Below are positions 10,201 through 13,439 of a stretch of DNA of 18,743 nucleotides, piece by piece. Where the stretch lies: the UHGV virus genome UHGV-0092215; one strand, given 5' to 3'. Source of the stretch: a virus. Under the pieces are notes generated by a model. That model did no database searches. It was not told the DNA's origin and saw only the letters and a program-made list of their open reading frames with translations. The position numbers and the translations under genes were made by a program. The first letter of the stretch is position 1; every line of letters starts with the position of its first letter.

Positions 10201-10446
10201 TTAGTTCTGTGGTTTTGTATCTGTATTCGCACCTGTACAGTTCGAATATCGATGCGGGTAAAGAATTTCTAGCTCATTGATTTTTCCTGAAAAGAAGCTG
10301 ACTAGTCGCTCAGCTATATCCAGGGAAGCAATTTGCTGTCCTCGCTCTATCCGACTTAGATTTCCCGGGTCGATATCGACACCTTTTGCGACATATGAAA
10401 GAGTCATACCTTGCGATTTACGCAAGATTCGTAACGGTGATTGCAT
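10201..10446 (-). CDS. cro: Cro-like HTH repressor (XRE family, 81 aa)
   Basis: HTH motif MTLSYVAKGVDIDPGNLSRIERGQQ; AAGGAGG RBS 4 nt upstream of the ATG; divergent from the CI-like gene across an operator region. Confidence 0.8.
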   Translation of the reverse strand: MQSPLRILRKSQGMTLSYVAKGVDIDPGNLSRIERGQQIASLDIAERLVSFFSGKINELEILYPHRYSNCTGANTDTKPQN

Positions 10447-10543
10447 ATACCCTCCTTTAATTGCGTAATACGCATATTAATTGGAACATACGACTTGCGC
10501 AAGTTGCTTTGCACATCACGCAAAAACAACATGTAATAGGCGC
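10447..10543. promoter_or_regulatory. divergent immunity control region (OR-like operators with PR and PRM-like promoters)
   Basis: Palindromes TTGCGTAATACGCAT (10461-10475), ACTTGCGCAAGT (10493-10504) and TTGCACATCACGCAA (10509-10523); plus-strand TTGCAC-17-TGTAAT places a start at about the cI ATG; minus-strand TTGCGC-17-TAATAT serves cro. Confidence 0.6.
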
Positions 10544-11236
10544 ATGAATATTGGAAACCGCATAAGAGAACTTCGCACTGCGAAGGGCCTGAAAATCGCT
10601 GATCTTGCAGAGGCTGTCGGTGTCGACGGCGCAAATATCTCTCGCCTTGAAACCGGCAAGCAGAAGTCATTTACTGAACAATCACTTAGTAAATATGCTG
10701 AAGCTTTAGGCGTTAGTGTCGCTGAGCTATTTACTCCTAGTGGAAATGCAACTACTGTATATAAAAACAGTGTAACAGCCCCACATATTGGAGATGACTC
10801 GGTGTTTAGAGTGGAAATTCTTGATGTTAGCGCTAGCGCTGGCGGAGGCTTTATTCAAGGTAGCGACGTTATAGATGTCATCAGATCCATCGAATACAAC
10901 AACGAGCGTGCTTTATCCATGTTCGGTGGTCGGGCAGCTGAGCAAGTGAAGGTAATCAACGTTCGTGGCGATAGCATGGCAGAGACTATTGAGCCTGGCG
11001 ACCTGATTTTCGTTGATATTTCAATACATGAATTCGACGGCGATGGTATATATGTATTTGGTTTTGATGACAAAATATATGTTAAGCGTTTGCAGATGAT
11101 ACCAGACCAATTGCTAGTAATATCAGATAACCCAAAATATCGAGAGTGGTCTGTCGATAAATCGAATGAGCATCGTTTTTATGTCTACGGGAAAGTAATG
11201 ATAAGCCAATCTCAGTCATTTAAACGCCACGCCTAG
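10544..11236 (+). CDS. cI: CI-like prophage repressor (N-terminal HTH, C-terminal S24 LexA-like peptidase domain)
   Basis: 230 aa from ATG 10544; HTH LKIADLAEAVGVDGANISRLETGKQ; C-terminal GDSMAETIEPGDLIFVD...YVKRL typical of S24 self-cleaving repressors. Confidence 0.9.
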   Translation: MNIGNRIRELRTAKGLKIADLAEAVGVDGANISRLETGKQKSFTEQSLSKYAEALGVSVAELFTPSGNATTVYKNSVTAPHIGDDSVFRVEILDVSASAGGGFIQGSDVIDVIRSIEYNNERALSMFGGRAAEQVKVINVRGDSMAETIEPGDLIFVDISIHEFDGDGIYVFGFDDKIYVKRLQMIPDQLLVISDNPKYREWSVDKSNEHRFYVYGKVMISQSQSFKRHA

Positions 11237-11254: not shown

Positions 11255-11279
11255 AACCGCCAGTCAGGCGGTTTTTTTT
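11255..11279 (+). terminator. intrinsic terminator downstream of cI
   Basis: AACCGCC-AGTCA-GGCGGTT followed by a run of 8 T. Confidence 0.75.
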
Positions 11280-11290
11280 CGCCATGACAA

Positions 11291-11328
11291 TTGCATTTTA
11301 CGCAATTTATTACTTGCGCAATACGCAA
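11291..11328. promoter_or_regulatory. OL-like operator pair with candidate early-left promoter
   Basis: TTGCATTTTACGCAA (11291-11305) and TTGCGCAATACGCAA (11314-11328) share the TTGCR-N5-CGCAA pattern of the sites between cro and cI; TTGCGC-17-TATCGT is a weak promoter candidate. Confidence 0.45.
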
Positions 11329-11452
11329 TTTAGATTTATCGTTATTCACATCAACAGCGAACAGGCAGGACGCCCACGAAGTAGCCGCCGGTGGCGTATG
11401 AATGACCGGATGATTCGCTGACAGAAAACTAAGGTTAGGGGCAGAGGTTTAC

Positions 11453-11818
11453 ATGAATCATTTATTCACATGCTCATTTTGTGGAGCAACCGAACTGGTA
11501 GCGATGAAGATCGTCGCAAAAGGTGGTAAGGACGAACCTGCTATCTGTTCGGAATGCGTAGTCACATGTGTAGAAAAAATGATCCTGACTAAAAAATCAG
11601 AGGCTGAAAAACCAACCCCTGATAACGAAATAATATCAGTCGATAAAAAACTATTTAAAGAGCTTCTTCAGCTTGTCCTCAACCTTCCTGATTTCGGAAG
11701 TAAGCTGGCTGCTGTTGACATTGATAGTGGCTCCACATCGACAAGTGAAACTTTTGTTCGACTTGAGCCAAGCGATTTTCTTCTTCGTCTTAGCGCCGCA
11801 CTTAGGGCATGCGGGTAA
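11453..11818 (+). CDS. small protein with ClpX-type N-terminal C4 zinc-binding domain (121 aa), first gene of the early-left operon
   Basis: ATG 11453 with GAGG RBS 5 nt upstream; CSFCGATELVAMKIVAKGGKDEPAICSECVVTCVEKMI resembles the ClpX N-terminal zinc-binding domain (CSFCGK...KLIAG...YICDECVDLC); C-terminal 75 aa unassigned and overlapped by an antisense ORF. Confidence 0.55.
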   Translation: MNHLFTCSFCGATELVAMKIVAKGGKDEPAICSECVVTCVEKMILTKKSEAEKPTPDNEIISVDKKLFKELLQLVLNLPDFGSKLAAVDIDSGSTSTSETFVRLEPSDFLLRLSAALRACG

Positions 11819-11941
11819 CGTAATTTCCTGGTTATCAAAAGCGCCCATAAACATCCCTCTTGGTTGTGTGAGAACACCAAGATACCACCGCGCCTGATGT
11901 GGTTAAAAGCAGGCCAAAGCAATAACAAGTAACTCCCTGTT

Positions 11942-11990
11942 CTGGCGGCCCGGTGTTTTCCCACTTGTCCGGTAACCGCCAGCCTTTTTC
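11942..11990 (+). terminator. terminator-like hairpin with T-run after the ClpX-zinc-finger-like gene
   Basis: CTGGCGG (11942-11948) pairs with CCGCCAG (11976-11982), then CCTTTTTC; the 27 nt loop is long for a canonical terminator. Confidence 0.4.
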
Positions 11991-12285
11991 AGGGCGCAAC
12001 GACGAGAGCATTGACGAGCAAGGCATAACGGCAGGTTCAATCCCTGCCACCGCTATACAGATGGCGGTGATGGGCAACGAAAAGGTCCGTTCAATTCGGA
12101 CACCGGCAGTGCTCTCTTCGTTGTGGTGAATGCGCAGGCTGATGCGCTAAACCGTGAGGGAGTGTCCCGAAAGGGTGCGTCACTGGTAATCAACCCATGC
12201 CGGAATATCGCAGCACCGGCCACCACAACCAAATCACGCTTAGGACCGTGATAACCGTAGTTCCAGTATTGCTGTGTGTAGTCTT

Positions 12286-12356
12286 GGCGGTACCAGGGTC
12301 TTCAACCTTATGCAAGGGGGCCGAAGATAATGTTCTACCTCGGTACCGCCCTTTTT
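12286..12356 (+). terminator. second terminator-like long hairpin with T-run in the ORF-free region
   Basis: GGCGGTACC (12286-12294) pairs with GGTACCGCC (12342-12350), followed by CTTTTTA. Confidence 0.35.
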
Positions 12357-12521
12357 ACGCAACAGAAAAGGGCATCACCGGGCGACGGGCTCATAACCCA
12401 ATCCACCCGGGCAAAAAGAAAGCGGTCTCTGCAAGCCGCCGACCAATGCAGGTGCCCTTCTCTGTTGTGTATGGAGAAACTAACTTTTTAGCGCCGGTGC
12501 AGAGGCGTTGAGGAACCGAGA

Positions 12522-13439
12522 ATGAACAATCCGTTTTTCAAAAATATGTTGGTGTATCGCCTTAGTCGCGATTTCACCATCAACCAGGAAGAGCTGGAAC
12601 AGCAGCTTGAACTATTTCGCTTCACTCCATGCGGTAGCCAGGATATGGCAAAAACCGGTTGGGTATCACCACTTGGTCAGCTGTCAGATCGCTTGCATCA
12701 CACTGTCAATAATCAAGTGTTGTTGGTTATTCGCCGGGAAGAAAAAATACTGCCATCTCCTGTCATTGCTGAAGAACTGCGCAAGCGTGTGTCGCGTCTG
12801 GAATCCGATCAGGGGCGTCGCCTCAAAAAAACTGAGAAAGATTCGCTGCGTGATGAAGTGTTGCACTCCCTGCTTCCTCGGGCGTTCTCCAAAAACTCGA
12901 CTGTTAGTTTGTGGATCAACGTCACCGACGGTCTGATCATGGTTGATGCAGCCAGCGCTAAACGTGCCGAAGACTCACTGGCCCTGCTTCGTAAAACTCT
13001 CGGTTCTCTCCCGGTGGTACCGCTGACTATGGAAACGCCGATCGAACTAACTATGACCGAATGGGTTCGTTCCGGTAGTGCGCCTGCTGGCTTTGGCCTG
13101 GGTGATGAAGCCGAGCTGAAAGCTATTCTTGAAGATGGCGGTATTGGACGCTTTAAAAAACAGACTCTGGTCAGTGACGAAATTCATGTGCATCTGGAAG
13201 CTGGCAAAGTAGTTACAAAGCTGTCTATCGACTGGCAACAGCGCATTCAGTTCGTTCTTTGCGATGACGGCAGCATCAAACGCCTTAAGTTCTCTAATGA
13301 GATTACTGAACAAAACGACGATATCGACCGTGAGGATGCGGCTCAGCGGTTCGACGCTGACTTTGTTCTAATGACCGGCGAGCTTATCTCTCTCATTAAC
13401 GGATTAACGACCTCTCTCGGCGGCGAAGCCAAGCGATAA
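12522..13439 (+). CDS. rdgC: recombination-associated protein RdgC homolog (phage-encoded)
   Basis: 305 aa; long collinear similarity to E. coli RdgC as I recall it ([81 protein letters not shown]); GAGG RBS. Confidence 0.9.

Follow-up and report, generated by a model that had tools for sequence, protein, structure and literature searches.

A probable array of DicF-type small RNAs and tRNA-like modules between the repressor module and rdgC of virus genome UHGV-0092215

Background

It is already known that a small RNA (sRNA) of the DicF type is processed from the early operon of a prophage. In Escherichia coli K-12, DicF is cut from the transcript of the dicBp operon: a cut by RNase III yields the 5' end of an RNA of 190 nt, which RNase E shortens to 53 nt (10.1101/2023.04.14.536235). 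DicF has been treated so far as an oddity of defective E. coli prophages, and a study from 2016 obtained no DicF matches in phage genomes with BLAST (PMC5069750). Here we investigate an interval of about 650 bases on the + strand of UHGV virus genome UHGV-0092215, situated between the repressor module and the gene rdgC. The whole stretch of 18,743 nt is referred to as the window, and all coordinates are those of the window unless a contig is named.

Several other systems invite comparison with this interval. Phage tRNA clusters hold tRNA-linked stable RNAs, which are transcribed together with the tRNAs, for example the species 1 and 2 RNAs of T4. The put RNA of phage HK022 is a processive antitermination RNA, which acts in cis, renders RNA polymerase resistant to terminators and is present in both early operons. 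Large phage RNAs like GOLLD and ROOL are, similar to our interval, conserved structured RNAs of hundreds of nucleotides, sometimes near or containing tRNAs. Finally, YrlA RNAs (~110-130 nt) possess a long closing stem enclosing a T-arm, a sequence-variable acceptor-like hairpin and a D-like region (PMC4201824).

A preliminary description of the interval, made from its letters, called it GC-rich and free of open reading frames (ORFs), and recorded two hairpins followed by T-runs as well as a T-arm-like element that was not part of an intact tRNA. Three explanations were offered, i.e. a phage sRNA between two terminators, a tRNA-derived or attachment-site (att) remnant, and a nut-like site acting in cis.

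Results

A structured interval without a plausible protein gene

We consider it probable that the interval is the structured noncoding leader of a repressor-controlled early-left operon, which reads the + strand and carries an array of separate RNA units (Table 1). This reading builds directly on the structures, their conservation and covariation, the strand on which they lie, and the homology and shared position with the dicF locus. The interval is indeed GC-rich (52-57% GC, compared with 41-50% in the flanks), and the fold of its whole + strand departs clearly from shuffled sequences (z = -4.45). An Rfam scan of the whole window yielded nothing at gathering thresholds, and with permissive E-values only a weak match to DicF and a chance match to a small nucleolar RNA; GOLLD, ROOL and other large phage RNAs gave no match in the window either at gathering thresholds or at E<=10. 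The earlier statement that no intact tRNA is present agrees with ARAGORN, which detected 0 tRNA or transfer-messenger RNA (tmRNA) genes in the entire window.

The characterization as ORF-free holds in the sense that there is no plausible gene, but mechanical ORFs do occur, one of 104 aa on the + strand (12197-12511) and two of 98 aa and 80 aa on the - strand. A Pfam scan of these ORFs gave zero matches. Indels of 1, 3, 4 and 25 nt among relatives fall inside them, and those among close relatives break their frames. Because of these indels, and because the K-12 ORF ymfH (see below) and the window ORF use different frames, we regard the interval ORFs as spurious. A conserved protein gene in homologous prophages, which would have identified the interval as a decayed gene, was not found: the ORFs annotated there (ymfH, 'hypothetical protein') are not kept in frame.

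Two terminator hairpins end putative DicF-type small RNAs

Both previously noted hairpins with T-runs are present, including the GGTA(A)CCGCC arm that they share, and each terminates an RNA unit. In sRNA2, GGCGGTACC (12286-12294) pairs with GGTACCGCC (12342-12350), followed by TTTTT (-34.2 kcal/mol, z = -2.8), while in sRNA1 CTGGCGG (11942-11948) pairs with CCGCCAG (11976-11982), again followed by TTTTT (-24.4 kcal/mol, z = -2.6). The proposal of a phage sRNA between the terminators was therefore essentially right but incomplete, as the terminators themselves end two DicF-type sRNAs and two further structured RNAs, modules A and B, sit between them. A simple terminator scan passed over both + strand hairpins, since their loops exceed its limits, and listed look-alikes on the - strand inside module A and hairpin h, which we regard as artefacts of + strand helices.

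The 5' part of sRNA2, UAUUGCUGUGUGUAGUCUU, is conserved and single-stranded, and a 20-mer motif from this part, GCTGTGTGTAGTCTTGGCGG, was found in >120 viral contigs. Its 124 instances comprise 70 hairpin variants, mostly of 52-63 nt and with U-runs, and the stem changes among them are compensatory (UACC/GGUA, CAUC/GAUG, UUAUCC/GGAUAA and others). The identity of this 5' seed over 20 nt in so many contigs, while the loop varies, argues for selection on the RNA and not for drift. Members of the family are likewise common in cellular genomes: a 73-nt query of the sRNA2 type (short variant plus 3' flank) matches 2770 of 5426 complete E. coli genomes, K-12 included. The 5' part of sRNA1 is an A-rich single strand, AAUAACAAG, with three A-R-N triplets, a pattern typical of Hfq binding. 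In E. coli 97.3 (L004) and in Nissle-type prophages sRNA1 is joined directly to module C, from which it follows that it shares the slot of sRNA2.

The relationship to DicF becomes apparent from the hairpin and from its genomic position. The Rfam model of DicF (RF00039) matches 12273-12351 with 16.6 bits (E = 1), a match that rests on the identical stem base UUGGCGGUA/UACCGCCC; DicF and sRNA2 thus have in common the hairpin base (UUGGCGGUA...CCGCCC) and the U-run, and in one variant (L222) the hairpin is nearly DicF. In the Qin prophage of K-12, the 140 nt upstream of dicF align at ~80% with the module B variant that precedes sRNA2 in two contigs (L133 and L025), which indicates that DicF and sRNA2 are alternatives in one slot. 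In Qin as in the window, this slot lies in the early-left operon, on the strand of the repressor, behind the repressor and small ORFs and after a structured region ending ...CACAAC. The order of genes in Qin (dicA, ydfABC, dicF, dicB) matches this arrangement, and UGUGGUGAAUGCGGCUGAGCGC, the stretch behind the dicF terminator, matches the beginning of module B. With respect to size, most family variants measure 52-63 nt and DicF ~53 nt, but the window copy is a long-loop variant, with a unit of 86 nt (counted from a predicted 5' end) and a loop of 51 nt as opposed to 23 nt in DicF. The window further differs from Qin in having two DicF-type units together with tRNA-like modules, the latter being only reduced in Qin.

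Module A, a tRNA-like RNA with two T-arms

Module A has good support as an RNA family, but Rfam does not contain it: no match was obtained in release 15 even at E<=10. Its closing stem encloses three hairpins, and its fold exceeds that of shuffled sequences (z = -5.2). Copies were gathered by a 15-mer scan of viral contigs with BLAST filtering (26 further distinct copies), a species-level genome scan (7 copies, from Brenneria, Yersinia, Citrobacter, Buttiauxella and Izhakiella) and a metagenome scan (45 copies). Among 34 sequences, 97.4% of the cells pair and 15 pairs are changed on both sides; none of the shuffles equals these values, and slid controls pair at 34-51%. RNAalifold recovers 35 pairs, 14 of them compensatory. 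The G-U pairs and the scores of the covariance model (150 bits on the + strand, 29.5 bits on the - strand) assign the module to the + strand. Folding and covariation across homologues, as had been suggested for the interval, hence support helices in module A, and also in module C and the sRNA2 stem.

The T-arm-like element of the preliminary description is exact (GCAGG at 12031-12035, TTCAATC at 12036-12042, CCTGC at 12043-12047) and lies in hairpin H1 of module A. If a T-arm is defined by a 5-bp stem closed by G-C and a 7-nt UUCRANN loop, two are present, at 12031-12047 and at 12085-12101; 34 homologues retain the two of them, with compensatory changes in the stems, and both loops are canonical (UUCRAUY closed by G-C). 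Hairpin H2 is flush against H1 and freely variable in sequence and length. Two G-rich single strands are invariant, namely ...AAGGCA... (...GAGCAAGGCAUAA...) and ...UGGGCA.... Judging from these motifs, module A may consist of two nested tRNA-like 'elbow' units, each composed of a T-loop and a D-loop-like GG strand. The module carries no CCA.

Comparison with YrlA reveals a partly similar architecture, with a terminal stem, T-arm H1, the variable 7-bp H2, and a G-rich single strand plus T-arm at the D position. Module A differs by this second T-arm in place of the D stem-loop and by the absence of the GNCGAA(N)G motif. YrlA gave no match at E<=10 in either of two permissively filtered scans, and a Ro60/Rsr (TROVE) gene is absent from the Pfam-scanned flanking ORFs.

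Module A occurs in 79 of 5426 complete E. coli genomes, in one copy each and never annotated. The best E. coli copy is only 84% identical to that of the window, and the array from module A to module C (11996-12490) is nearly identical in Citrobacter sp. Cu233 (L129). An origin of the window from E. coli is therefore improbable. A weak match in a low-GC contig (L050) was rejected because it rests on the 15-mer with which the contig had been fetched. In two module A phages, Rfam matches to C4 antisense RNA, isrK and c4-a1b1 adjoin an antirepressor gene (L005 544-732, L064 2569-2769), which points to an RNA-controlled antirepressor module of the P1/P7 type.

Module B and its exchange with tRNA genes

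Module B is a tRNA derivative in a slot that is interchangeable with a real tRNA and, as far as Rfam 15 and the literature searched show, it is new. Its 5' strand shares the last 5 nt of module A and forms a 7-bp acceptor stem (UGUGGUG 12122-12128 with CACCACA 12221-12227), one arm of a cloverleaf-like four-way junction; the other arms are a hairpin resembling a D-arm, a central arm and a 5-bp hairpin that directly abuts the 3' strand of the acceptor. The acceptor stem is followed by A and then CCA (12228-12231), in the manner of a tRNA discriminator and CCA end. A CCACAAC-type strand occurs 51-155 nt after GUUGUGG in 51 of 63 distinct contexts, as compared with ~5% estimated by chance. A recognised cloverleaf with an anticodon arm was not found, either by ARAGORN in the window or by the Rfam tRNA model at E<=10 in 11985-12240.

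In the Salmonella phage SPN9TCW (Uetakevirus), the slot of module B is occupied, within the same boundaries, by a true tRNA-Arg(UCU). Here and in a related contig the tRNA follows module A and its first four bases are the last four of that module; in contig L038 the same tRNA ends 2 nt upstream of module A. Module A adjoins tRNA-Arg(UCU) in these three loci, with a spacing of 0-2 nt or a 4-nt overlap. The flanks ...CGTTGTGG and CA(C)AACCA-AATCACGCTTAGGACCGTGAT are common to the window, phiNP, contig L011 and the true tRNA locus, with the interior swapped, and in SPN9TCW the CCA end of tRNA-Arg is likewise followed by the sequence of hairpin h, the trailer of module B. The slot of Yersinia L128, and also that of L040, contains a sequence that passes the Rfam threshold for tRNA (40 bits).

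A tRNA-like element with acceptor stem, D-arm and T-arm is found in L128 (1255-1382, - strand) and L040 (1800-1925, + strand), and also upstream of module A in L057 and L061. Its anticodon/variable region is replaced by an insertion of ~60 nt, the loop at the anticodon position is unconserved, and ARAGORN makes no call. A general linkage between module A and tRNA genes was rejected, given that a true tRNA is adjacent in only 3 of ~80 loci. In a metagenomic contig (L285 2059-2526) ARAGORN reported a cluster of six tRNAs, one with a four-base anticodon (gcaa).

Like T4-type clusters, these loci contain structured RNAs flush with tRNAs, and module B has the 3' trailer of tRNA-Arg, an acceptor stem and ACCA. 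They differ in that there is no anticodon arm, the modules are unrecognised by ARAGORN and the Rfam tRNA model, and most loci are without a nearby true tRNA. With regard to the second explanation offered earlier, tRNA ancestry is borne out by the acceptor stem and ACCA that module B retains, but 'remnant' is not an appropriate term for T-arm RNA helices that covary in 34 homologues, and nothing that we found points to an att site.

Module C and the shuffling of cassettes

Module C, a stem-closed three-way structure, folds with z = -4.2, and its consensus of 27 pairs includes 5 compensatory ones; G-U pairs fit the + strand and the third arm is variable. It follows sRNA2 in prophage e14 and at many other loci. 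Its closing stem resembles stem P1 of module A, but the similarity is confined to the closing stems and the covariance model of module A is blind to module C, so that its interpretation as a divergent copy was rejected.

BLAST comparisons with phages and E. coli genomes gave partial and patchy matches, and no record spans 80% of the interval. Exactly 12001-12359 is missing from E. coli 97.3 and Nissle-type prophages, whose matches cover 11800-12000 and 12360-12560, and different sub-blocks are matched by phiNP, 1720a-02, Stx2a phages, SfII, ST64B and SPN1S. Among 151 loci, pseudoknot, sRNA2, module C is the most frequent arrangement, and 5 loci have the full order of the window. Module A is optional, and L038 places tRNA-Arg and then module A behind the pseudoknot and sRNA2. 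This variation in order, together with the optional presence of module A, indicates that the units behave as independent cassettes, and their independent shuffling argues against one large tertiary fold of the GOLLD/ROOL kind. In SPN9TCW (L001 2390-2800) a cassette composed of a conserved upstream module, module A, tRNA-Arg(UCU), hairpin h and a DicF-like terminator hairpin lies on the opposite strand between portal-side and terminase genes. Such an insert in the structural gene region of a Uetakevirus speaks for RNA genes that are self-contained. The upstream module of this cassette (GGAAUGUGCAAG...GGGAAGAGNCNNGGA) is also present in Stx2a-type phages.

Three direct copies of CYYTCTNNGTTGTGK (11855-11869, 12112-12126, 12456-12470) mark the 3' ends of successive modules. 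This repeat, CCACAAC and TTTTTACRCAAC coincide with break-points of cassette exchange, and all three may be helix strands and recombination joints at the same time.

Prophage e14 and ymfH

The K-12 match to the sRNA2-type query lies inside ymfH, an annotated ORF of prophage e14. This prophage resembles the window in the order hairpin 0, pseudoknot, P1-equivalent stem, module B (closed by GUUGUGG/CCACAAC), sRNA2, module C and next gene. It differs in possessing a mini module A of ~46 nt without T-arms, no sRNA1 and a short-loop sRNA2, and in being annotated as a protein gene. In E. coli K-12/BW25113, ymfH (L243 2377-2688) overlies module B, the DicF-like sRNA and module C. YmfH and the 104-aa ORF of the window share only residues encoded by a conserved nucleotide motif, and homologous nucleotides of module C are read by the two ORFs in different frames. 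From these comparisons, ymfH is probably a mis-called ORF over RNA genes.

The early-left genes of e14, including 'ymfH', are SOS-induced (PMC11228462). In a screen, the e14 'ymfH' clone triggered the toxin of retron-Sen2, an effect that was attributed to the protein (10.1101/2020.06.22.160242). RNA may instead be responsible, because module B, sRNA2 and module C all lie within the cloned segment.

Genomic context and upstream elements

The genes around the repressor (Table 1) make up an immunity region of the lambdoid type. Operator palindromes with the consensus TTGCG-N5-7-CGCAA cluster at 10410-10505 and 11290-11329. The half-site pattern occurs 9 times where 2.05 are expected, with clusters at the cro/cI divergent region and after the repressor gene, and these clusters would mark the rightward and leftward early promoters. 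Since operator copies follow the repressor terminator, we place the leftward early promoter near 11285-11345, from where it would read the + strand through the interval into rdgC. A 45-aa ORF (11284-11421) overlapping this promoter is probably not a gene. Shortly downstream, at 11366-11391, lies the leader hairpin GGCAGGACGCCCACGAAGUAGCCGCC, which directly adjoins module A, with no ORF between, in viral contig L012; it may act as a site of the nut or put kind or simply stabilise the 5' end. A YfbR-like protein was likewise found by Pfam among the flanking ORFs.

Hairpin 0, at the beginning of the interval, is also found in e14, L131 and L027. The candidate pseudoknot behind it is formed by two stems (ACCAC 11884-11888 with GUGGU 11899-11903, and GCCUG 11892-11896 with CAGGC 11910-11914) that are connected by an A-rich linker. 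It is conserved in e14 (L243 2301-2335), in L038 (7330-7362), where it directly follows the promoter as the first transcribed element, and at many other loci; as it displays little covariation, its structure is a proposal from sequence.

Table 1. Features of the interval and its surroundings in the 18,743-nt window
Feature	Position	Strand	Basis or detail
cro-like gene	10201-10446	-	Pfam scan of ORFs
LexA/CI-type repressor	10481-11236	+	Pfam scan of ORFs
Repressor gene terminator	11259-11282		
Early-left promoter region (putative), two operators	11284-11345	+	ATTGCATTTTACGCAAT 11290-11306; CTTGCGCAATACGCAAT 11313-11329
ClpX-zinc-finger protein	11453-11818	+	Pfam scan of ORFs
Hairpin 0 (UCUUGGU / ACCAAGA)	11858-11882	+	Fold; first element past ClpX-zinc-finger ORF
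Candidate H-type pseudoknot (PK)	11884-11914	+	Read from sequence
sRNA1 unit	11915-11990	+	Terminator hairpin 11942-11982, U-run 11985-11989
Module A, 131-nt tRNA-like structured RNA	11996-12126	+	Fold, covariation
Module A closing stem P1, ~19 bp	11996-12017 with 12104-12124		
Module A H1, T-arm	12030-12048		GGCAGG-UUCAAUC-CCUGCC
Module A H2, 7-bp hairpin	12049-12068		
Module A H3, second T-arm	12085-12101		GUCCG-UUCAAUU-CGGAC
Module B, cloverleaf-like tRNA derivative	12122-12231	+	Fold, inverted repeat
Trailer hairpin h (AUCACG / CGUGAU)	12233-12252	+	Fold
sRNA2 unit, DicF-family small RNA	12267-12356	+	Hairpin 12286-12350, U-run 12352-12356
Module C, stem-closed three-way structure	12360-12469	+	Directly after sRNA terminator, before rdgC ribosome-binding region
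rdgC	12522-13439	+	Pfam scan of ORFs

Discussion

The similarity to the dicF locus suggests how such an array might work. Upon inactivation of the repressor, transcription from the early-left promoter would enter the array, where the two terminators, whose U-runs are short (5 U), would stop part of it and thereby provide the 3' ends of sRNA1 and sRNA2. In the read-through RNA, RNase III would cut the long closing stems, and RNase E, possibly together with RNase P at the 5' junction of a tRNA-like module, would cut or trim at single-stranded or tRNA-like junctions. By analogy with DicF, both sRNAs could thus be made by termination, RNase III and RNase E, and the processing would free stable small RNAs and separate them from the rdgC mRNA. 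The sRNAs would then exert their effect in trans, pairing with other RNAs by means of their conserved single-stranded 5' parts, while the tRNA-like modules might mimic tRNAs or serve as signals for processing or stability. In Qin, a point 190 nt back from the 3' end of DicF lands in the 3' strand of a ~20-bp stem ending ...CGGUUGUGG / ...CUUCCGGUUGUGG, and this long stem is, by its place in the sequence, the positional counterpart of P1 in module A.

Several observations weigh against this picture. That this phage transcribes the array, where the RNA is cleaved and what any of the products do in trans are steps that we infer, and the RNase III site is placed by positional comparison with Qin. 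The sRNA2 match of 16.6 bits is far from the DicF threshold of 48 bits, which no sRNA2-type homologue passes in 27 loci, and the 5' parts are unrelated (GCUGUGUGUAGUCUU here, UUUCUGGUGACGUU in DicF). In a crude RNAduplex test against the region -60..+30 of E. coli ftsZ, the shuffle fractions were 0.67 for sRNA1 and 0.56 for sRNA2 as opposed to 0.045 for DicF; pairing no better than that of shuffles led us to reject ftsZ as a target of the two sRNAs. A target of the sRNA2 seed within the window was not found besides the position of the seed itself. The fold of module B only marginally beats shuffles (z = -1.3), and its internal arms are without covariation support because the copies of this variant are near-identical. 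Finally, the conservation in the interior of module A, with its two T-loops and invariant single strands, exceeds the needs of a processing signal. A preprint on Pas sRNAs was set aside as not relevant, since it concerns sRNAs of the late region.

One further suggestion is rather doubtful in our judgement: module A, and in simpler form its relative module B, could represent a new class of phage tRNA mimic, a 'double-elbow' whose two T-loops dock on the two invariant GGCA strands and which, once freed from the early transcript, acts in trans on machinery responsive to the shape of tRNA. It is improbable that such tRNA mimics, acting in trans, are in general the main products of the locus, where they would bind or titrate enzymes for which the elbow or acceptor end of a tRNA is the recognition feature (RNase P, CCA-adding or modification enzymes), or serve as decoys or triggers for host defences that sense or cut tRNAs. 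The canonical T-loops and GGCA strands of module A speak for this possibility, as do the H2 hairpin flush with T-arm H1, which is the arrangement of YrlA-type mimics (PMC4201824), the acceptor stem and ACCA of module B, the exchange of modules with tRNA-Arg(UCU) or their position flush against it, and the triggering of the retron-Sen2 toxin by the e14 'ymfH' clone (10.1101/2020.06.22.160242). However, no gene for a partner protein is consistently linked, module A is optional and rare in E. coli (79/5426 genomes), the anticodon loop is unconserved, module A lacks CCA, and there are zero Rfam matches to tRNA, tmRNA or YrlA; the retron effect, moreover, was attributed to a protein and comes from e14, which has no full module A.

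We likewise give little credit to the view of the array as a transcription-control leader acting in cis, in which the folded RNA (above all the pseudoknot near the promoter, or the modules closed by stems) would alter RNA polymerase or act in competition with the terminators, controlling read-through into rdgC and the remaining early-left operon like HK022 put RNA or nut, with the sRNAs as by-products. No N-like gene was found among the Pfam-scanned ORFs between the promoter and the array, two terminators lie inside an operon that needs read-through, and the pseudoknot, widely conserved, is transcribed first in L038. Alternative pairings can also be drawn, of GUUGUGG with upstream CAAC or downstream CCACAAC, and of the terminator 3' arm with the module C 5' strand. 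These pairings, however, lie downstream of the terminators that they should prevent. The rightward promoter, followed by tightly packed ORFs, has no comparable noncoding element, the modules are optional and vary in order, the Uetakevirus cassette lies outside the early operon, and a conserved 5' seed joined to a terminator is the architecture of a trans-acting small RNA. As for HK022 put itself, both are folded RNAs early in the leftward operon of a lambdoid phage without an N gene and upstream of terminators, but sequence and structure are dissimilar, a rightward counterpart is missing and the modules here are optional and reorderable. A nut-like site, the third of the earlier explanations, is accordingly possible for the upstream pseudoknot but unneeded for the features described, and the self-contained Uetakevirus cassette speaks otherwise.

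That the interval represents a decayed or unrecognised protein gene (ymfH-like), or a non-functional recombination scar or att-type remnant of lambdoid mosaic exchange, is highly improbable. In its favour, ORFs of ~104 aa are annotated here in K-12 (ymfH) and in many genomes and phages ('hypothetical protein'), and module boundaries coincide with GTTGTGG, CCACAAC and TTTTTACRCAAC as possible recombination joints. Against it, compensatory changes maintain the helices, the lengths of the indels are no multiples of three, different frames are read in ymfH and in the window ORF, a Pfam domain is absent, and the 20-nt sRNA2 seed stays identical in >120 contigs next to a variable loop.

Conclusions

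As far as Rfam 15 and the literature searched show, three aspects of this locus are new besides module B: the breadth of the DicF-related family in functional phages, the probable identity of ymfH as RNA genes, and module A as a tRNA-like family, supported by covariation, which adjoins real tRNAs. DicF is thereby placed within a much larger family of early-operon sRNAs, which share a hairpin and a genomic slot and carry different seeds, and which are carried by functional lambdoid phages of Escherichia, Salmonella, Shigella, Citrobacter and Klebsiella as well as by roughly half of the complete E. coli genomes. The annotation of ymfH in K-12 may be wrong, which would alter the reading of screens that employed this clone. 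If the 'double-elbow' proposal were true, module A could titrate RNase P or enzymes that modify or repair tRNAs, or act as a decoy or trip-wire for defence nucleases and sensors, and effects credited to 'YmfH-type proteins', such as the triggering of retron-Sen2, would be effects of RNA. The tRNA-like features of module A, exchangeable with a real tRNA or flush against one, make it a tractable case, in phages of E. coli, for the question of why phages carry tRNA mimics.

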